Positions 5,492 through 59,679 of a DNA stretch of 64,000 nucleotides are shown here, one piece after another. This stretch comes from Gammaproteobacteria bacterium. GTDB taxonomy: Bacteria; Pseudomonadota; Gammaproteobacteria; G965277405. Location: contig OZ255726.1 of NCBI GenBank assembly GCA_965277405.1, forward strand, positions 896,001 through 960,000. The letters are read 5' to 3'. The notes below the pieces were generated by a model. It worked only from the letters and a program-made list of their open reading frames with translations. It did no database searches and had not been told where the DNA came from. The first letter of the stretch is position 1. Each line of letters opens with the position of its first letter. Made by a program: the position numbers and the translations under genes.

Positions 5492-5774
5492 TGAAGCTCT
5501 GATTAATTCCATGATGGGCGAGACGGAGAAAAAACGCTGATGATAACTAGACGCAGCACTTGATAATACTGGTGGTATTATCAAGTGCTGCAACGACGTT
5601 AGCGCAGCGTTTTTTCCCGTCCTTCTGTTGAATATACAACGGTTTGATGGTAGCGGTACTTGCTGTGTTGCATCCCTTGGCGTATATGCTATGGCATGCG
5701 CCTGCGGAATGCGCCTTGCAATCATCAGCAATTGCCATCAAACTCGCCCCATCAGCGACTTAATCAGAGCTTCC
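5492..5774 (+). mobile_element. MITE, full copy, TSD TTAG/TTAG
   Basis: TIRs TGAAGCTCTGATTAA...TTAATCAGAGCTTCC; near-identical to copies at 13629, 16729, 36754 and 41192. Confidence 0.92.
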
Positions 5775-13628: not shown

Positions 13629-13914
13629 GGAACCTCTGATTAATTCCATGATGGGCGAGACGGAGAAAAAACGCTGATGAAACTTAAGCGCAGTGCGCAG
13701 ATAATACTGGTGGTATTATCAAGTGCTGCAACGACGTTAGCGCAGCGTTTTTTTTCCGTCCTTCTATTGAATATATGATGGTTTGCCTACAAGCGGTACT
13801 TGCTGTGTTGCATCCCTTGGCGTATATGCTACGGCATGCGCCTACGGAATGCGCCTTGCAATCATCAGCAATTGCAGGCAAACTCGCTCCATCAGCAAGT
13901 TAATCAGAGGTTCC
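13629..13914 (+). mobile_element. MITE, full copy, inserted at the pnp stop (TSD CTAA/CGAA)
   Basis: GGAACCTCTGATTAA...TTAATCAGAGGTTCC; the left TSD contains the pnp TAA. Confidence 0.92.
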
Positions 13915-16728: not shown

Positions 16729-17013
16729 GGAAGCTCTGATTAACTCGCTGATGGAGCGAGTTTGCCTGCAATTGCTGATGATTGCAAGGCGCATTTCGCA
16801 GGCGTATGCCGTAGCATATACGCCAAGGGATGCAACACAGCAAGTACCGCTTGTAGGCAAACCATCATATATTCAATAGAAGGACGGGAAAAAACGCTGC
16901 GCTAACGTCGTTACAGCACTTGATAATACCACCAGTGTTATCTGCGCACTGCGTCTAGTTATCATCAGCGTTTTTTCTCCGTCTCGCCCATCATGGACTT
17001 AATCAGAGCTTCC
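16729..17013 (-). mobile_element. MITE, full copy, reverse orientation, flanks CTAG/TTTG
   Basis: Reverse complement of the 13629 copy with intact TIRs. Confidence 0.92.
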
Positions 17014-36753: not shown

Positions 36754-37037
36754 GGAACCTCTGATTAAGTCCATGATGGGCGAGACGGAGAAAAAACGCT
36801 GATGATAACTAGACGCAGTGCGCAGATAATACTGGTGGTATTATTAAGTGCTGCAACGACGTTAGCGCAGCGTTTTTTCCCGTCCTTCTGTTGAATATAC
36901 AACAGTTTGATGGTAGCGGTACTTGCTGTGTTGCATCCTTTGGCGTATATGCTACGGCATACGCCTGCGGAATGCGCCTTGCAATCATCAGCAATTACCA
37001 TCAAACTCGCTCCATCAGCGACTTAATCAGAGGTCCC
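36754..37037 (+). mobile_element. MITE, full copy, TSD CTAA/CTAA, between the plsC stop and the hemA start
   Basis: GGAACCTCTGATTAA...TTAATCAGAGGTCCC; the right TSD holds the plsC TAG (minus strand). Confidence 0.92.
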
Positions 37038-41191: not shown

Positions 41192-41474
41192 GGAAGCTAT
41201 GATTAAGTCCATGACGGGCGAGACGGAGAAAAAACGCTGATGATAACTAGACGCAGTGCGCAGATAATACTGGTGGTATTATCAAGTGCTGCAACGACGT
41301 TAGCGCAGCGTTTTTTTCCGTCCTTCTGTTGAATATATGATGGTTTGCTGCAGCGGTACTTGCTGTGTTGCATCCCTTGGCGTATATGCTACGGCATGCG
41401 CCTGCGGAATGCGCCTTGCAATCATCAGCAATTGCAGGCAAACTCGCTCCATCAGCGACTTAATCAGAGCTTCC
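41192..41474 (+). mobile_element. MITE, full copy, TSD CTAT/CTAT, inserted at the start codon of the ligase gene
   Basis: AGGAGGAATA-CTAT|GGAAGCTATGATTAA...CAGAGCTTCC|CTAT-GGGC. Confidence 0.93.
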
Positions 41475-44009: not shown

Positions 44010-44153
44010 GGAACCTCTGATTAAGTCCATAATGGGCGAAACGGAGCAAAAACGACGTGAGCACAGCGTTTTTCCTGTTCCTCTGTTGCATATACTGTTC
44101 AATATACAACGGTTTGGAGCAATTGCTGCATCAGCGCCTTAATTAGGACTTCC
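44010..44153 (+). mobile_element. Internally deleted MITE copy (flanks CTAG/TTAA)
   Basis: GGAACCTCTGATTAAGTCCATAATGGGCG...CATCAGCGCCTTAATTAGGACTTCC. Confidence 0.8.
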
Positions 44154-46129: not shown

Positions 46130-46421
46130 GGGATCTCTGATGAACTAGCTGACGGAATGAGTTTGCCTGCAATTGCTGATGATTACAAGGCGTAGAGCGC
46201 ATGACCTAGCTATACGCCAAGGGATGCAATACAGCAAGCGTAAGCAATTGCCGCAAACCAAAAGTGTATTCAACACAACGACGGAGAAAAAACGCTGTGC
46301 TACCGTCGTTGCAGCACTTGGCAATACCCACAGGACCCACCAATATTATCTGCGCACTGCGCTTAAGTTTCATCAAGCGTTTTTCTCCGTCTCGTCCAGC
46401 ATGGACTGAATCAGAGCTTCC
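46130..46421 (-). mobile_element. MITE, diverged full copy, reverse orientation (flanks CTAG/TTTA)
   Basis: Colinear with the 16729 copy; ends in AATCAGAGCTTCC. Confidence 0.88.
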
Positions 46422-51534: not shown

Positions 51535-52340
51535 GTGGAACTGATAAAGAAATGATCTTAGGTCTTTGGCAAGGCGTCGGTATCCGCGGTGAGGTGACGT
51601 CGAACATCGAAGACATTCAGCGAATAGCAATACAGGCAGCTGCTGAGGGTGTCGAACTTCTGGTTTTTCCCGAATGTTTTTTGACGGGATACTTAGCGTC
51701 GGCAGATGTAGCAGAGATCGCAGCGCAAGTAGATGGTCTTGTCTTTGATAAATTGGAGAGCATCGCGGATGAATACAACATCGCCTTGGTTGTTGGCTCC
51801 TATGAAGTCTCCACGCGAGGGGTCTATAATGCGGCCTTTGTCGTGCATCCTGGAATAGGATTAGTCGGAATTTATCGAAAACGCATGCTCTATGGCGCTT
51901 GGGAAAAGCGGACATTCCAGCAAGGCACCGAACCGCTGACCTTCAAATGGAAGGGACTAACAGTCGGGGTGTTGATCTGCTTTGATATTGAGTTTCCAGA
52001 GCGCACCAGAGAATTGGCAAACTTAGGAGTCGATTTGATTGTTACACCAACCGCACTGATGGAGCCGTTTGCTAAAATTTCATCGCTTGTTGTCCCAACG
52101 CGGGCGCTGGAAAACGGTATATATGTAGGCTACGCAAACCGGATAGATCGTGAAGAAGAATTTGAATATGTCGGTGGTAGTTGTATTATTGCCCCAGATG
52201 GGACGGATATGGCGCGGGCGGAAAAAGCAACAGCAACGCTGCTGACTGCTAGTATATCAACACAATACCGCGATTTGATAACATCAAAAATCAACTACCT
52301 TGTTGAAGTTTCTCGCGAAAATACGCATGTCATTGATTGA
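51531..52340 (+). CDS. Carbon-nitrogen hydrolase (amidase, DavA-like)
   Basis: LLVFPECFLTGY, YRK, ICFDIEFPE, VPTRALEN (E-K-C triad). Confidence 0.9.
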   Translation: MSGTDKEMILGLWQGVGIRGEVTSNIEDIQRIAIQAAAEGVELLVFPECFLTGYLASADVAEIAAQVDGLVFDKLESIADEYNIALVVGSYEVSTRGVYNAAFVVHPGIGLVGIYRKRMLYGAWEKRTFQQGTEPLTFKWKGLTVGVLICFDIEFPERTRELANLGVDLIVTPTALMEPFAKISSLVVPTRALENGIYVGYANRIDREEEFEYVGGSCIIAPDGTDMARAEKATATLLTASISTQYRDLITSKINYLVEVSRENTHVID

Positions 52341-52522
52341 GTATCCCCGCACAATGAAAAATGCAACATCAGGAATGGTTGCTTATCTTTAACAACGAGG
52401 ATATGCGCTAACAACGAGGATATGCGCTAAGCATAAAATTCCACATTCTCCAGCAAGGACTCCTACTGCGGCTGTAGCCCTTAAGATCTGCACCAGTTGA
52501 GAACACCTATCCGGCAACAATA

Positions 52523-52596
52523 ACAACCTTTAATTAGAGGTTGTCAAGCAACAATTATTGCGAGTTTTCTTCTTGTAACTCCTCTAATTTTAGAGG
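52523..52596. promoter_or_regulatory. Two related palindromes (candidate operators) upstream of the sugar ABC operon
   Basis: ACAACCTTTAATTAGAGGTTGT (52523-52544) and CCTCTAATTTTAGAGG (52581-52596). Confidence 0.45.
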
Positions 52597-52713
52597 GGAT
52601 ATCATGATGCCGAAAAAATAAAACATCTATGTAAATTGTGATATAATGTAAACTAAGTGTGTTGGATGTACTGGATGCATAGATGCATCCAAACGAACAA
52701 CAAGGAGAAAAAT

Positions 52714-54297
52714 ATGACCAAAATGCTTAAGCAATCTCTGATTACGTCGATAATTAGCAAGACGGGGCAACAAGATGATAATAATAGCCGCAGTACGCAG
52801 ACAATACTGCTGGGTATTATCGAGTACTTTAACGACCTTCGCGCAGCGCTGTTTGCCGCCGATGTGTTGAAGATACTGTTGGTTTACGGTACATGTTGTG
52901 TTACTCGCTTGGCGGATATGCTCAGGTCTGCGGTTTGCGCCTTGCAATCATCAGCAATTGCCATCAAGCTCGCCAATCAGCGCCTTAATCAGAGCTTCCT
53001 TAGAATACTAGCTATTTCTGCCACAGTATTTGTCACATTGCCGGTTTTGGCAAAGGACACTCCTGTTACTTGGTGGTATGAACGCGCCACCCCTGAGCAA
53101 CAAGCTGCACTGTCGGAACTGATGATTGATAAATTCAATGCTGCTGACAATGGCAACACTCTCACAATCGACTACCGTGGCAACGAATTGGATAAGCAGC
53201 TGCGGATTGCACTTTTATCAGGAACTGGTCCGGATGTAGTCAATACACCTGGTCCGTCTTTCGTGGCAACAATGGCACGCGCTGGGCAATTGCTGGCACT
53301 CGATGATATCGCTGTTAAAAAAGGCTGGAACGACCGAATCCTGCCATTCTTCATGGATTTGGGTCGGTTCGATGGCCATCTGTATGCGCTGCCAAAAACC
53401 TATGAAACACTTGGATTGTTCTACAACAAAAAGGTCATGGCAGAGAATGGCTGGGCGGTACCTACAACTCTTGCAGAACTGACGACAGTTGCCGATGCAA
53501 TGCTGTCTAAAAACATTATCCCATTTGGGTCTGGCAACTCGGACTGGCGTCCAGCCAACGAATTTCAGGTATCAATTGCTCTCAACTCCATCGCTGGTCC
53601 AGACAACATGCAAAAAGCGCTAACAGGTGAGTTGCCGTGGACGGCAGAACCTTTTGCCAAAGCCATCAATACACTAGATAGCTGGTGGAAAAAAGGCTAT
53701 TTTGGACCTGACTACTTCTCACTCACCGGTGATCAGGTCATGGCTAACCTGGCTAATGGTTCTGCTGCGATGGTGCCAACCGGCACATGGAACTTCCAAC
53801 TAGTCCCAGAATATTTTGGCGATCAACTTGACAACATTGGTTTTGTAGGTTTTCCCAGCGGCGAAGGAGTGGCATACCCAATATACGCACTTGGCATTGG
53901 CTCCACACTCTCTATCGCGGCAAAAGCCAACAACCCTGAAGGTGCTGCCAACGTCATTGATTTTATCTTTAGTAAAGGTTTCTATCAGGACATGAACAGT
54001 GTTTGGCAAGGTGAGTGGAACATGCCGCTGCGTGACCTCAGCAACGTAAAACTGAGCGAAGATATCATCCCGCTGTATACGGAATCTATGGCTGCCTTGG
54101 CTGAATCCGTGAATCAAAGTCAATACGGTTACACTACTTGGACGTTCTTCCCTCCTGCAAGCAACTCTTACATTGTGAGTGGCATCGAGCAAGTTTGGCT
54201 GGATGATATTACTACCGAAGAATTCCTCGCAGAACTTGATGATATTTTCAAGCAGGAATTGGCTGAAGGCAAAGTCGCGGATATCCCTGCGCGTTAA
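52714..54297 (+). CDS. Sugar ABC substrate-binding protein with an in-frame 91-codon MITE insert in its signal peptide
   Basis: AAGGAG-ATG 52714; GPDV, DG.LYALP, LFYNK motifs; removing the insert restores MTKML(K/R)ILAISATVFVTLPVLA. Confidence 0.88.
   Translation: MTKMLKQSLITSIISKTGQQDDNNSRSTQTILLGIIEYFNDLRAALFAADVLKILLVYGTCCVTRLADMLRSAVCALQSSAIAIKLANQRLNQSFLRILAISATVFVTLPVLAKDTPVTWWYERATPEQQAALSELMIDKFNAADNGNTLTIDYRGNELDKQLRIALLSGTGPDVVNTPGPSFVATMARAGQLLALDDIAVKKGWNDRILPFFMDLGRFDGHLYALPKTYETLGLFYNKKVMAENGWAVPTTLAELTTVADAMLSKNIIPFGSGNSDWRPANEFQVSIALNSIAGPDNMQKALTGELPWTAEPFAKAINTLDSWWKKGYFGPDYFSLTGDQVMANLANGSAAMVPTGTWNFQLVPEYFGDQLDNIGFVGFPSGEGVAYPIYALGIGSTLSIAAKANNPEGAANVIDFIFSKGFYQDMNSVWQGEWNMPLRDLSNVKLSEDIIPLYTESMAALAESVNQSQYGYTTWTFFPPASNSYIVSGIEQVWLDDITTEEFLAELDDIFKQELAEGKVADIPAR
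52731..52999 (+). mobile_element. MITE, strongly diverged copy inside a CDS (TSD TTAA/TTAG)
   Basis: GCAATCTCTGATTA...GCGCCTTGCAATCATCAGCAATTGCCATCAAGCTCGCC...TTAATCAGAGCTTCC. Confidence 0.88.
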
Positions 54298-54385: not shown

Positions 54386-55237
54386 TTGCCGATGCACCGT
54401 TTGTTTGTTATACCGACATTGCTCATCAGCGTTTCTATCATCATGTTACCAGCAATATTAACCATATTGCTTGCATTCTTAAGATGGGATGGGGTTTCTG
54501 TCCCGCAGTTTATTGGCCTAGAAAATTTTGAGAAACTTTGGAATGATCGTATTTTTTGGCGCTCACTCGCAAATAACTTAAAATGGACAGTTCTGTTTAT
54601 GACGTTTCCCATCATAATCGGCCTTGTCGCTGCCTCTTTGTTGTTGATTGTGAAACGAGGTAAGACATTCTTTCAGGTTATCTACTTTTTGCCAGTCATC
54701 ATTGCGTCCGTGATTACGGCGCGTATTTGGCAAGGTATGATCTACAACCCGCAAACGGGCATTGTGGCATTGCTGAATCGATATGGGTTTGAGTTGAACG
54801 ATCCGCTCGCCCGCATGTCTTCCGCGCTCTACGGCGTGGCTGTGGTTGATCTTTGGCACTGGTGGGGGTTCATTGCGATGATTTTCTTTGCGTCCCTGCG
54901 GCAGGTTCCGACCGAACAGATCGAAGCTGCGCGGATTGATGGGGCTAGCTACTTGCAACAAATGCGCTGGGTGCTGATCCCCGCAATCAAACCAACGATC
55001 ACACTGATGATGATCATGACCGTGATCTGGTCGTTCCTTGTCTTCGATTTCATCTACGTTATGACCCAAGGCGGTCCTGCGTTTTCTAGCGAAGTTCTTT
55101 CAACAATGTCCTATCGCGAGGCGTTTTACGAACTCAAGGTCGGGCGTGCTGCTGCGACTGCGCTAGTAATCAGCCTGTGCGGGGTCGCAGCATCGTTTTT
55201 CTATATCAGACTTCAAGCCAAAGAGGTCGAAGAATGA
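54386..55237 (+). CDS. Carbohydrate ABC transporter permease
   Basis: FIGLENF, YFLP, EAARIDGA. Confidence 0.92.
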   Translation: MPMHRLFVIPTLLISVSIIMLPAILTILLAFLRWDGVSVPQFIGLENFEKLWNDRIFWRSLANNLKWTVLFMTFPIIIGLVAASLLLIVKRGKTFFQVIYFLPVIIASVITARIWQGMIYNPQTGIVALLNRYGFELNDPLARMSSALYGVAVVDLWHWWGFIAMIFFASLRQVPTEQIEAARIDGASYLQQMRWVLIPAIKPTITLMMIMTVIWSFLVFDFIYVMTQGGPAFSSEVLSTMSYREAFYELKVGRAAATALVISLCGVAASFFYIRLQAKEVEE

Positions 55238-56067
55238 ATCCCATCGAAAGCCGCTTAACGATGATAATTACCTACATGATATTAAGCATCGCGGCGTTTA
55301 CAGCATTGTTCCCGATAGCATTGATGGTGCTGAACTCACTAAAAACTAACCCAGAAATCACGCTTAATCCGTTGTCATTTCCGGTCACCGCCGCATGGGA
55401 AAACTTCACACGCGCTTGGAAAGGAGCGAATTTCTCGCAAACGTTCTTTAACTCGGCATTACTCGTGTTCATTACGATTGTTTTGGTGATCTCAACGGGG
55501 TCGCTGACAGCATATGTTCTGGCACGCAAAAAAATCAAATCATGGAAAATTCTGAGCGCCTACCTGCTGGCCACGACAACGGCTCCTATTCAGCTATTTA
55601 TGTTCCCGCTGTATTTTGGGTTCGCTAAGCTGGGTATAATCAACAACGTGTTCGCGGTTGCGGTAATTTATTGCGCACTGTATAGCCCGTTTTCAATCAT
55701 GCTTTTGCGGACGTATTTTCTGGCTGTGCCGGTAGAGCTAGAAGATGCAGCTCTCATTGACGGAGCAACTCCATGGCAGGTTTTCTACCGGGTTTATTTG
55801 CCGCTTGTCTGGCCAGGGATACTGACTGTGACGCTGATCATCGGGCTATACACATGGAATGAATTCCTGATCGCAACAACGTTCCTACAAGCATTAGAAT
55901 CAAGAACTGCGGTTGTGTCTTACTTCATGCTCTCCGGGCAATTCCTAAGCGATTGGGGTGAATTAATGGCTGGTGCTCTTTTGGTCGTACTGCCAATCGT
56001 CGTTTTGTTTATCATTCTGCAAAAACGCTTTATCGAAGGCATCACTAGCGGATCCGTTAAGGGCTAA
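55234..56067 (+). CDS. Carbohydrate ABC transporter permease
   Basis: P.ELEDAALIDGA, WNEFL, QKRFIEG...G.VKG. Confidence 0.92.
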   Translation: MNPIESRLTMIITYMILSIAAFTALFPIALMVLNSLKTNPEITLNPLSFPVTAAWENFTRAWKGANFSQTFFNSALLVFITIVLVISTGSLTAYVLARKKIKSWKILSAYLLATTTAPIQLFMFPLYFGFAKLGIINNVFAVAVIYCALYSPFSIMLLRTYFLAVPVELEDAALIDGATPWQVFYRVYLPLVWPGILTVTLIIGLYTWNEFLIATTFLQALESRTAVVSYFMLSGQFLSDWGELMAGALLVVLPIVVLFIILQKRFIEGITSGSVKG

Positions 56068-56084: not shown

Positions 56085-58202
56085 ATGATTATGAAATTGC
56101 AAGACGACTATCTTGAACGAGTTTATGCGGGGGTGCTAGGCAAGCTTATCGGGGTCTATCTCGGGCGTCCGTTTGAGGGCTGGAGCTATGAGCGCATCAT
56201 GAAAGAGCTCGGAACGATTAAATACTACGTTCATGAACAACTCGGTGACCCGTTGGTCATTACCGATGATGATATCTCGGGTACATTTACGTTTTTGCGG
56301 GCGCTGGAGGATTATGATCTCTCTGAAAACCTCAAATCAGCAGATATCGGTAAGGCTTGGATGAATTATATTGTTGAAAAACGGTCTATCCTCTGGTGGG
56401 GTGGCAATGGCAATTCAACCGAGCACACCGCTTGGCTGAACCTGCGTAAAGGCATCCTGGCGCCACAAAGTGGTTGTATTGCAACCAACGGTCTGACCGT
56501 GGCTGAACAAATCGGCGCGCAGATTTTTATCGATGGTTGGGCTTTGGTTGCGCCAGGGCAACCAGCATTGGCGGCCAAGTTTGCCAAAGAAGCTGGCAGC
56601 GTGAGTCACGGTGGGGAATCCGTCTTCGCCGCTATGCTGTGGGCTGCGATGGAGAGTGAAGCCTTCCACTCTAAAGATATTGATCACTTGTTGGATACAG
56701 GCCTTTCTTTCATTCCAACCAACAGCGAACTTGCCACGATGATCAGAGATGTTCGCAAATGGAACAGCAAAATCGTCGACTGGCGAGATTGTCGTCAGAA
56801 GATTGCCGATAACTACGGTTACGACAAATACCTTGGTAATTGTCATATTATCCCAAATCATGCGATCATGGTGATGACGATGCTGTATGCGAGAGGGGAT
56901 TTTTCTTTCGCCCAACAGATTATAAACACCTCTGGCTGGGACACAGATTGCAACGCAGGTAACGTTGGCTGCCTCCACGGGATTATGTTGGGTCTCGATG
57001 GTTTGAGTAAGGGTCAAGATTGGCGAGGACCAATTGCTGACCGCATGCTGATCTCGTCTGCTGATGGTGGAAACTCCATTAACGACGCAGTCAAGATGGC
57101 TTACTACATTGCCAACCTCGGCAAGACCCTTGCTGGCGAGACACTGATTGAGTCGCCAAAAGGCGGTGCCCAATATCATTTCTCGCTTCCAGGCGCACAG
57201 CAGGGGTTTCAACTAACCGAACAAACTGGTGGTGATTTTGCTGCGCGCGTACAGGGAACATCGCATCACGGAACTGGGATGCTGGAAATTCGCTTCAATG
57301 GATTATCACTGGGAGGTGAAGTAGTGACAACCACACCAACCTTTGCTCCATTGGATGTTTTGCGGATGAGAACATATGATCTGATGGCAACACCGTTGAT
57401 CTATTCTGGTCAAACTCTTGTCGCTCGTGTCATTTCAGACGAAAACACAAGCGGCAAAATTGTCGTCAAATTGCGCATCCGCCATTACGGCGCAGCGGAC
57501 CAATTGGTTAATGTTGATAGCGACCCAATACACATTATCGCTGGGAACACGGGCGAAGTCAGGTGGCAGCTTCCAGAGTGTGGGTCTCAACCAATCGCAG
57601 CAATTGGTCTTGTTGTATCTAGTGCAGATGGTCGGGTGACGGGTCGAGTATATCTTGACTGGATGGGGTGGACAGGCCCCCCTGAACTCACTCTACGCCG
57701 CCCAAGTGAGCCAAGCGATTTCTGGCATCGTGCGTGGGTGAACGGCGTAGATATTTTCTCCAAACATTTCCCTGAAAGTTTTCACATTTCACAAGATCGT
57801 GGCGCAGGTTTGATCATTCATGGCACACGCCAGTGGACTGACTACAAAGTAACAGCGGATGTCGTCGTACATTTGGGGCGATACGCTGGATTGACCGCAC
57901 GTACACAAGGTTTGCGTAGATTTTACGCAGCACGGATATCCGCAAAAGGACTATTTGAAATAACCCGTAGTTACGATGACGAAATCGAAGTTCTTGCGTC
58001 AGCAGCTTTTGAGTTTAGATTGGATAACTGGGTTTCCATGTTCATGATAGTTCTGGGAACGACAGTCACCGCAGGTGCAGACAAAATAACCCTTACTGTG
58101 GATGACACATCAAATAAAGTTTTGAAGGATGGTGGTATCGGTCTGATGGTGGCTGAAGGAGCAGCGTCAGCAAATATTTTCTATGTAACATCAGAAACTT
58201 AA
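56085..58202 (+). CDS. ADP-ribosylglycohydrolase-family protein with a long C-terminal extension
   Basis: ERVYAG.LGK.IGV.LG.PFEGW, TDDD, E.IGAQI..D, GWDTDCNAG. Confidence 0.88.
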   Translation: MIMKLQDDYLERVYAGVLGKLIGVYLGRPFEGWSYERIMKELGTIKYYVHEQLGDPLVITDDDISGTFTFLRALEDYDLSENLKSADIGKAWMNYIVEKRSILWWGGNGNSTEHTAWLNLRKGILAPQSGCIATNGLTVAEQIGAQIFIDGWALVAPGQPALAAKFAKEAGSVSHGGESVFAAMLWAAMESEAFHSKDIDHLLDTGLSFIPTNSELATMIRDVRKWNSKIVDWRDCRQKIADNYGYDKYLGNCHIIPNHAIMVMTMLYARGDFSFAQQIINTSGWDTDCNAGNVGCLHGIMLGLDGLSKGQDWRGPIADRMLISSADGGNSINDAVKMAYYIANLGKTLAGETLIESPKGGAQYHFSLPGAQQGFQLTEQTGGDFAARVQGTSHHGTGMLEIRFNGLSLGGEVVTTTPTFAPLDVLRMRTYDLMATPLIYSGQTLVARVISDENTSGKIVVKLRIRHYGAADQLVNVDSDPIHIIAGNTGEVRWQLPECGSQPIAAIGLVVSSADGRVTGRVYLDWMGWTGPPELTLRRPSEPSDFWHRAWVNGVDIFSKHFPESFHISQDRGAGLIIHGTRQWTDYKVTADVVVHLGRYAGLTARTQGLRRFYAARISAKGLFEITRSYDDEIEVLASAAFEFRLDNWVSMFMIVLGTTVTAGADKITLTVDDTSNKVLKDGGIGLMVAEGAASANIFYVTSET

Positions 58203-58251
58203 CGCATGACGCGAAAATCATGCATAGAGAATTATTACAAGACGGAGAAAA

Positions 58252-59316
58252 ATGGCAAGCGTTGAAATTAAAAACGTCTTCAAGTATTTTGATGATACAC
58301 AAGTTTTGGAAGACATCTCGGTCAAAATTGAGGATGGAGAATTTCTGGTTCTCGTTGGCCCTTCCGGATGTGGAAAATCGACATTGTTGCGCATGGTTGC
58401 AGGTTTGGAAGACATTACTAGCGGTGAGATTTTGATAAACGCTACGTTGGTAAACAAGCTCCCCCCCAAAGCACGTGATGTGGCTATGGTTTTTCAGAAT
58501 TACGCGTTATATCCGCATTTAACTGTAGCCGAAAATATGGGGTTTTCTTTGATGCTGGCGGGGGCACCAAAATTAGAAAAAGTAAAACGTGTCAACGACG
58601 TCGCAACAATGTTGGGTCTTGCAGATCTGTTGGATCGCAAACCAAAAAATCTGTCAGGCGGGCAAAGACAGCGGGTCGCGATGGGGCGAGCGATCGTTCG
58701 AAAACCGCAGCTGTTTCTGTTTGATGAGCCATTGAGTAACCTCGACGCGAAATTGCGGGTTGCTATGCGCAGCGAGATCAAATCTCTGCACCAAAAAATG
58801 AAGAGCACAGCAATCTACGTGACACATGATCAAGTCGAAGCGATGACGATGGCTGACCGGATTGTTGTAATGAACGAAGGGCGTATTGAGCAAATTGGAC
58901 GCCCTTTGGAACTATACGATAACCCAGTCAACGTTTTCGTTGCTGGTTTTATTGGAACTCCATCGATGAATTTCCTCGCCGCTCGTGTGGATTTGACTGG
59001 CTCAATGCCCAAAGCGACTCTTCCTACAGGGGATGAACTACCGCTGCCAGAATTGAACGGTCTTAGACAAAGCGAAAACATTATCTATGGAATGCGTCCG
59101 GAACATTGTAGCATTGCTGATGCAGGCACAGCTGTTGTAGTCGATGTCATTGAACCTATGGGTGCTGAAACGCAACTCATTCTGAAATTAGGCTATGCGT
59201 CAATCGTAGTTACTATTCGCGATCGTGTTTCCTTACACCATGGAGAAAAAATTAAAATTTTGCCAGATGTGTCGAAAGTAGTGATTTTTAAAGTGGATAC
59301 TGGAACTCGAGTTTAG
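58252..59316 (+). CDS. Carbohydrate ABC ATP-binding protein (MalK/UgpC-like)
   Basis: GPSGCGKST, VFQNYALYPH, LSGGQRQR, DEPLSNLDAKLR, FIG.P.MN. Confidence 0.94.
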   Translation: MASVEIKNVFKYFDDTQVLEDISVKIEDGEFLVLVGPSGCGKSTLLRMVAGLEDITSGEILINATLVNKLPPKARDVAMVFQNYALYPHLTVAENMGFSLMLAGAPKLEKVKRVNDVATMLGLADLLDRKPKNLSGGQRQRVAMGRAIVRKPQLFLFDEPLSNLDAKLRVAMRSEIKSLHQKMKSTAIYVTHDQVEAMTMADRIVVMNEGRIEQIGRPLELYDNPVNVFVAGFIGTPSMNFLAARVDLTGSMPKATLPTGDELPLPELNGLRQSENIIYGMRPEHCSIADAGTAVVVDVIEPMGAETQLILKLGYASIVVTIRDRVSLHHGEKIKILPDVSKVVIFKVDTGTRV

Positions 59317-59679
59317 CAGTGGCTTGGACCTAGTTGACTGAATGACAAATGAGGTAGCGGGTGAATTCAGACAATAATTCGATTTTTACTGCAACATTCG
59401 CAAGCTAATCGACCTCACCCGTTTAACCCCGCCGCCGTCGCTCTTACACAGCGTGTAAGGAACAATACAGCAACTATCGCAATTACGGCAAACCATCATA
59501 TATTCAACAGATGAACGGAAAAACCGCTGCGCTGCGTCATTGCAGCACTTGGTAATACCCACAAGACCCACAAGACCCACAAGACCCCCAAGACCCACCA
59601 GTGCTATCTGCGCACTTCGCTTAAGTTTCATCAGTGTTTTTGCTCGGTCTCGCCCATCATCGACTTCATCAGAGCTTCC
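59317..59679 (-). mobile_element. MITE, diverged reverse copy with a 9-bp tandem expansion (probable TSD TTAG/TTAG)
   Basis: Clear homology over about 59455-59679; the left end is inferred from GACCTAGTTGACTGAATGA resembling the 46130 copy; the left TTAG contains the ATPase stop. Confidence 0.75.

Follow-up and report, generated by a model that had tools for sequence, protein, structure and literature searches.

A decayed IS5-type miniature transposable element lies in open frame within the signal-peptide region of an ABC-transporter binding-protein gene

How can a gene for an exported protein stay readable when a mobile element with stop codons in all of its frames has landed within the signal peptide? 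The question is raised by a locus in a 64,000-nucleotide (nt) stretch of a Gammaproteobacteria bacterium genome (contig OZ255726.1, positions 896,001 to 960,000 of the forward strand; the whole stretch is hereafter called the window, and its numbering is used throughout unless genome positions are indicated). The analysed genome is a single contig of 2.17 Mb with 44.8% G+C. An open reading frame (ORF) on the plus strand of the window (52657..54297, 546 codons from stop to stop) holds a complete MITE (miniature inverted-repeat transposable element) and its target-site duplication (TSD) without a stop codon. From the ATG at 52714 to the stop at 54295-54297, this frame encodes a 527-amino acid (aa) protein, the solute-binding protein of an ATP-binding cassette (ABC) transporter. 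An original prediction, drawn from the letters of the DNA and their translations, had described the element as a domesticated insert that is translated in frame and tolerated because the signal peptide is cleaved off. On sequence evidence, we lean towards read-through of the insert from the native start at 52714, with the translated insert probably being discarded together with the signal.

The 527-aa protein matches Pfam SBP_bac_1 with 104.3 bits (cut-off 26, E = 1.6e-29), and each of its NCBIfam matches scores under the cut-off of the respective model. The Pfam score above the gathering threshold and the adjoining ABC permease and ATPase genes place it in solute-binding protein family 1. A search of 5.8 billion proteins retrieved 433 relatives; within the best 120, nearly all are 426-445 aa long and the top two are 87% and 86% identical to the window protein. 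No orthologue exceeding 87% identity, and none bearing the insert, occurs among the matches listed from that search. Likewise, no orthologue was found in a search of 40 genomes, none of which is closer than the same class, and a metagenome scan returned matches of at most 79% identity. The nearest homologues come from marine and Hyphomicrobiales-labelled metagenome assemblies.

Alignment with 12 homologues (436-441 aa, 61-86% identity) demonstrates what the insert interrupts. All 12 begin with MT and proceed directly to the hydrophobic core of the signal peptide, and the 91 extra codons of the window gene are absent from every one of them; in the window protein, the 91 extra residues are placed between MTKM(L) and RILAISATVFVTLPVLA|KD. 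Upstream of the insert lie the native Shine-Dalgarno sequence AAGGAG (52702..52707, plus strand), 6 nt before the ATG, and the native start codon (52714..52716, plus strand), which opens the same MTK-type N-terminus as in the homologues; homologous metagenome loci share the layout GGAG(G)AAAAnATG. Downstream of it lies the remainder of the native signal peptide (53002..53052, plus strand), an arginine followed by the hydrophobic core ILAISATVFVTLPVLA, with cleavage expected after VLA on the basis of hydropathy and the alignment with the 12 leaders. What looks like an otherwise normal Sec-type leader has thus been split, as had been proposed. An inverted repeat of two perfectly matching 9-bp arms, 2 nt apart (52672..52691, plus strand), read directly from the sequence 23 nt before the start, is possibly an operator or a 5'-untranslated hairpin of the native leader region.

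The anatomy of the insert is that of a transposition event. The element, a decayed 269-bp copy of a 285-bp IS5-type MITE (52731..52999, plus strand), retains 15 of 18 bp of the left and 17 of 18 bp of the right terminal inverted repeat (TIR). It is flanked on the left by TTAA (52727..52730, plus strand), which matches the family target TTAG/CTAA in three of four bases, and on the right by an exact TTAG (53000..53003, plus strand). The insertion point lies 13 nt into the coding sequence, and the element plus one 4-bp TSD amounts to 273 bp, or 91 stop-free codons, read as codons 6-96 of the gene; both the coordinates and the arithmetic of the original prediction were right on this point.

The insert is a member of an abundant repeat family. 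A 281-bp stretch of it gives 160 BLAST matches of at least 200 bp elsewhere in the genome, and a hidden Markov model (HMM) built from 143 aligned copies detects 316 loci, 172 of them full-length, together accounting for 3.0% of the genome. The 285-bp consensus has perfect 18-bp TIRs, carries stops in all frames and folds into a long hairpin (-134 kcal/mol). Identical 4-bp flanks occur at 65 of the 165 two-ended copies, and 50 of these 65 are TTAG/CTAA. The family is short, lacks a transposase, is dispersed, bears TIRs and TSDs, and shares its ends with an autonomous element, all of which characterize prokaryotic MITEs and agree with the earlier identification of the insert as a MITE copy with a 4-bp TSD. 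Copy lengths range from 254 to 311 bp owing to internal length-variable hot spots, namely a central region in which a short GGTCTTGTGGGT-like unit is repeated a variable number of times and, close to the right arm, a block of 13 nt that some copies have and others lack. Two old copies 1.7 kb apart (genome positions 129439-129728 and 131110-131399) have identical HMM scores, lengths and fold energies and are probably part of a segmental duplication.

The autonomous element with the same ends is a resident 1,228-bp insertion sequence (IS) bounded by the 18-bp TIRs of the MITE; its 315-aa transposase matches the IS5-family model NF033581 of NCBIfam (327.5 bits, cut-off 140). Similarity between MITE and IS is confined to the terminal 16-19 bp and their interiors are unrelated, so the MITE is no simple deletion derivative of the IS, which would mobilize it in trans. 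Many copies of the IS are present (e.g., genome positions 1421168-1422395, equivalent to L060:993-2220), with tandem and back-to-back arrangements among them (e.g., 1421168-1423607), and the 2.17-Mb genome yields 70 DDE_Tnp_1 matches; such a load is suggestive of relaxed selection on the lineage or of its recent restriction to a host. An 18-nt TIR scan of contigs of other genomes gave at least 110 matching stretches in many phyla. We rejected these as copies of this MITE: they reflect a widespread IS group, and nhmmer with the MITE model found just two weak partial matches at 102 foreign loci.

The gene-internal copy belongs to the oldest members of the family. Its identity to the consensus, 81% as compared to a median of 93.5%, ranks it 141st of 143, and by HMM score it ranks 167th of 172, in accordance with the heavy divergence noted originally; no other copy in the genome is more than 81% identical to it. 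Its 49 substitutions relative to the consensus include 20 private ones (found in at most two copies) and 13 subfamily variants (found in at least ten). The hairpin has decayed as well: the fold energy of -0.30 kcal/mol per nt ranks 168th of 172 and is no better than that of shuffled sequences (z-score -0.39). Logan contigs of two sequencing runs, which may derive from the source sample itself, show 0 differences to the window over 52300-52957 and 52938/52976-54400, and the private 1-bp deletions described below are thus not assembly errors. Apparent polymorphisms at 52964 and 52968 were dismissed, as the differences stem from other repeat copies.

How, then, is the frame open? When the consensus is placed at the insertion site, the entry frame reads MTKMLREALIKSMMGETEKKR before TGA TGA TAA, the stops being met as CGC TGA TGA TAA. 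In the gene-internal copy, a 1-bp deletion just before this point turns the reading into GAT GAT AAT, as had been read from the sequence before. Seven indels separate the copy from the consensus, in order -1, -1, +1, -7, -1, an in-frame -6 and -1, and the resulting frame path 0>1>2>1>2>0>1 contains six frame switches. Stops of the consensus stand directly after three of the four 1-bp deletions (the first before TGATGATAA, the second at AAC TAG and the last before TAA). None of the 49 substitutions removes a stop, which upholds the claim that indels opened the frame. The four 1-bp deletions and the 7-bp deletion recur in no more than one of the 171 other copies (0-1/171), and we consequently rejected a subfamily origin for them; the 6-bp deletion lies in a variable region and is shared by 16 of the 171, and the +1 falls into a variable tandem-repeat region where the alignment is ambiguous.

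Such an open copy is exceptional in this genome. A scan for in-frame copies, as the original prediction had called for, covered 210 loci of at least 150 bp; the gene-internal copy is the only one (1/210) that is open inside a long ORF, the other open frames lying in ORFs of at most 167 aa. Any one of the six frames is open in just 3 of the 143 full-length BLAST copies. When 165 copies were excised exactly in silico, an ORF of 150 aa or longer was restored at 24 of them, and about 7 of these 24 ORFs extend for at least 57 codons on either side of the MITE; the gene-interrupting copies are all young (HMM scores 264-341) and all contain stops.

The contribution of chance was gauged by simulations in which the consensus, placed at this site, decayed neutrally by 51 substitutions and seven indels, with 100,000 runs for each setting. 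An insert both in frame and stop-free arose in 797 of 100,000 runs when indel sizes were random and in 2,443 of 100,000 when the observed sizes were placed at random. The open frame thus exceeds chance, yet not overwhelmingly.

The mature part of the gene remained intact beside the decaying element. Its 415 codons (1,245 bp; 53053..54297, plus strand) encode a 414-aa periplasmic solute-binding protein, recognized by Pfam SBP_bac_1 and aligned from end to end with its homologues, and contain neither a premature stop nor a frameshift, in agreement with the initial reading of an intact downstream gene. The mature part is 88% identical to P0002, the nearest homologue. At sites where four outgroups agree, the window protein carries 13 unique amino-acid changes in comparison with 12 in the homologue P0003, and the lineage of the window protein would have experienced at most a mild acceleration, without gross decay. 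Two intact ABC permease genes follow (54386-55237 and 55177-56067, plus strand; BPD_transp_1 in both), and the operon is completed by two further intact genes (56085..59316, plus strand), one for a 705-aa ADP-ribosylglycohydrolase-family protein (56085-58202) and one for a 354-aa MalK-type ABC ATPase. The seven indels in the element, set against the intact mature part and four intact downstream genes, argue that the gene kept working with the insert in place.

A history for the locus can be sketched from these observations. An IS5-type MITE would have inserted at a TTAG in the binding-protein gene of a carbohydrate ABC transporter, between MTKML and the Sec hydrophobic core, and in its undecayed state it would have ended translation at TGA TGA TAA. 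With read-through blocked in this way, the gene most likely relied initially on a start provided by the element. Neutral small indels may then have wandered through the decaying copy until the native Shine-Dalgarno sequence and ATG joined the exit frame without a stop, and from then on the open frame was probably held by selection because the gene had regained its strong native start. At present, ATG 52714 would yield a 527-aa precursor with a leader of 113 residues, in which the insert would form a lengthy n-region, cytoplasmic and of positive charge; export by the Sec machinery and cleavage by signal peptidase I would release the normal mature protein, and the insert would be lost with the leader. 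We are evenly divided on the fullest form of this proposal, in which the leader is a functional 113-residue Sec signal peptide consisting mostly of a decayed transposon, and the compensating indels were selected since 91 arbitrary leader residues cost nothing.

Several features of the predicted precursor bear on export. Both the native core and VLA|KD are retained and have counterparts in the leaders of the homologues, although the n-region would span 97 residues. As the insert precedes the core and VLA|KD over its whole length, the topology would permit its removal together with the leader. Charges of +5/-1 are found in the loop that leads up to the native core; this fits an N-in orientation of the core, and hence cleavage at VLA would release the usual mature protein. 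No Pfam family is found in residues 1-112 at E <= 0.01. An AlphaFold2 model of the precursor, computed with 13 sequences, draws one long helix in residues 1-113 with block means of 31-54, and at such low confidence says nothing about the fold.

Other observations weigh against translation and export of the long precursor. A bacterial Sec leader of 113 residues would be unusually long. The insert itself encodes a hydrophobic stretch, residues 44-63 (52843..52902, plus strand), whose Kyte-Doolittle mean over 19 residues peaks at 1.9 at residue 45, compared with 2.1 at residue 95 in the native core; being almost as hydrophobic as the core, it might serve as a signal anchor and upset the topology. 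For a feature that came to notice through its openness, the 1-2% chance obtained in the simulations is not so low that it can be neglected. Past periods of broken read-through are implied by the compensating frameshifts (-7, -1, -1). In the present frame, 12 of the 49 substitutions are synonymous, as compared to 23.6% expected at random; no constraint is therefore apparent at the amino-acid level, and at most the frame is kept open. This result divides the original description of a domesticated insert that is tolerated: tolerance agrees with the intact mature gene, whereas domestication finds no support in the share of synonymous changes. The window protein also carries 15 unique changes versus 4 in P0002 at sites where four outgroups agree. 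Finally, the three runs listed for the locus, all from one study and none of them an RNA run, supply DNA contigs, identical to the window.

The explanation that competes best with read-through is internal initiation, also raised at the outset, at the in-frame ATG of codon 69 (52918..52920, plus strand; a consensus ATG in frame 0) or at a nearby TTG. It would give a 45-residue leader (MLRS...FLR plus the native core) and would make the open frame a by-product of neutral decay. The consensus speaks for such a start having served once, as about 78 codons of its exit frame, reaching the right end and crossing it, contain no stop and include an ATG. Moreover, three mutually compensating frameshifts require tolerated intermediates; during the periods of broken read-through the gene would have depended on an internal start, which keeps this explanation alive. 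The lack of apparent constraint on the insert peptide likewise counts in favour of this explanation. The strength of the two starts points the other way. The anti-Shine-Dalgarno duplex at the intact native start (-8.5 kcal/mol) is the strongest of 13 in-frame start candidates and far exceeds that of the weak GGCGG motif before ATG 52918 (-4.8 kcal/mol), which lies merely 2 nt upstream of that codon, and ribosomes arriving from upstream would translate through the internal site and occlude it. A promoter inside the element finds little support, with a single 9/12 consensus match and 4 matches in the region versus 2.0 +/- 1.6 in shuffles. On the premise that the internal start alone counted, the simulations left the native ATG in frame and stop-free up to 52918 in 1,630 (random indel sizes) or 4,881 (observed sizes) of 100,000 runs, or in just 1.6-4.9%. 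We thus regard present-day reliance on an internal start as rather unlikely, though as a serious competitor.

The surroundings of other family members bear on the same point, as further copies directly precede genes that appear to be live, and their frames run out into these genes, so that genes here can be expressed beside or through a MITE. Three such copies precede apparently intact genes at L173:790-2097 (+), L175:336-1952 (-) and L174:622-1899 (+). Open frames from the three MITE ends run into these genes, and the ORF caller adds extensions such as MRLAIISNC...SELI.. before what is probably the true start. At its right end, the consensus has three outward frames, two of which are stop-free, and mis-annotated N-termini are thus likely across the genome.

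A less favourable explanation is that the gene is effectively dead, with the precursor not exported or the gene not expressed, and that both the openness of the insert and the integrity of the mature part have survived by chance. IS and MITE copies abound in the genome (the 70 DDE_Tnp_1 matches and 316 MITE loci), MITEs do interrupt genes in it, as the excision analysis demonstrates, the extra hydrophobic stretch could block export, and the window protein has 15 unique changes against 4 in P0002. We nonetheless consider a dead gene improbable: the element has accumulated seven indels and at least 20 private substitutions in 285 bp, yet the adjoining 1,245 bp are intact at 88% identity, the count of unique changes is balanced when P0003 is the reference, and the two permeases, the ATPase and the fourth operon gene are all intact. 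Precise removal of the insert from the RNA by splicing or processing, or its skipping by the ribosome, is highly improbable: the consensus hairpin could be a processing target in principle, but this copy has lost its fold, the region 52300-53300 gives 0 Rfam matches at E <= 1 and thus no self-splicing intron or curated RNA family, the frame would need to be restored to the nucleotide by the removal and its being open would then be needless, and nothing else was found in favour of this alternative of the original prediction. IS5-type MITEs are not known to bring about such a removal.

Several neighbouring features complete the picture of the window. It holds six more full-length MITE copies as well as partial ones (5493-5774, 13629-13914, 16729-17013, 36754-37036, 41192-41474, 46131-46421 and 59462-59679), together with fragments at 316-364 and 44010-44097; these copies are young (HMM scores 319-336), except for 46131-46421 (score 262) and the partial ones. 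A near-tandem direct repeat, GATATGCGCTAA.. in two copies about 20 nt apart, occupies the intergenic region upstream of the operon (52400-52433). The ADP-ribosylglycohydrolase-family gene between the permeases and the ATPase is an unusual partner in a sugar-type ABC operon, which hints at the substrate of the transporter.

If the long precursor is indeed made and exported, translation through the insert from the native start would set a natural upper bound on the tolerance for Sec leaders and would provide a natural test of the n-region length and hydrophobicity that the Sec pathway accepts. It would also exemplify how a disrupted gene can recover while the inserted element stays in place, mark cleaved leaders as a refuge in which mobile DNA can persist inside essential reading frames, and caution those who annotate repeat-rich genomes that a "signal peptide" of great length may be what is left of a transposon. 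Should initiation take place at the internal start, a secreted protein would have obtained a new start and n-region from the MITE. As a single locus in a single genome, the case has modest general weight.

Comparison with known systems places the locus among, and apart from, several precedents. Among the papers listed by searches of the full-text literature, judged by title and abstract, none describes a prokaryotic MITE that is read through inside a signal peptide. The element shares with IS5-family ISs the identical 18-bp TIRs, the 4-bp TTAG/CTAA TSD and a resident IS5-family transposase; unlike deletion derivatives of IS5 elements, it has only the terminal 16-19 bp in common with the IS. 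At the protein level, the extended signal peptide region (ESPR) of autotransporter and two-partner secretion (TPS) proteins (PMC2805444, among others) also places extra sequence N-terminal to a normal n-h-c Sec signal, but the ESPR is a conserved motif of about 25 residues, whereas the window protein carries 91 residues of transposon origin in a leader without a Pfam family. MITEAba12 (PMC6382973) is a MITE that can give neighbouring genes their first residues and a promoter. The present locus, like three other copies in this genome, resembles it in that an IS-derived MITE lies in or beside a gene's 5' end and open frames run out across the TIR; fusions of the MITEAba12 type, as depicted there, take up a few residues from the element end, and here the whole element of 91 codons is spanned from an upstream start.

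According to a 2024 review (PMC10969869), it is nothing unusual for an intragenic MITE to be fused in frame with a host ORF, and such fusions are frequent for the Rickettsia palindromic elements (RPEs), to which the original prediction had likened the insert. As with RPE, ERIC, BOX, QMITE1 and Anabaena MITEs in that account, a small palindromic mobile element sits in a working host gene and adds residues in frame, and the host protein seems to keep its function. The parallel is a loose one: the intact host gene agrees with it, and a coding-competent family that is recurrently in frame does not. RPE families possess a conserved ORF that is in frame in many genes, whereas the consensus here has stops in the entry frame and a single locus of 210 is read through. 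In contrast to RPEs, the frame was made after insertion, by indels, and the insert lies in a leader that is predicted to be cleaved, leaving the mature protein unchanged. In-frame MITE inserts known from bacterial genes normally come from ORF-bearing families and are kept in the mature protein; what would be new at this locus is a non-coding element that became readable after its insertion, in a part of the protein that is probably discarded.

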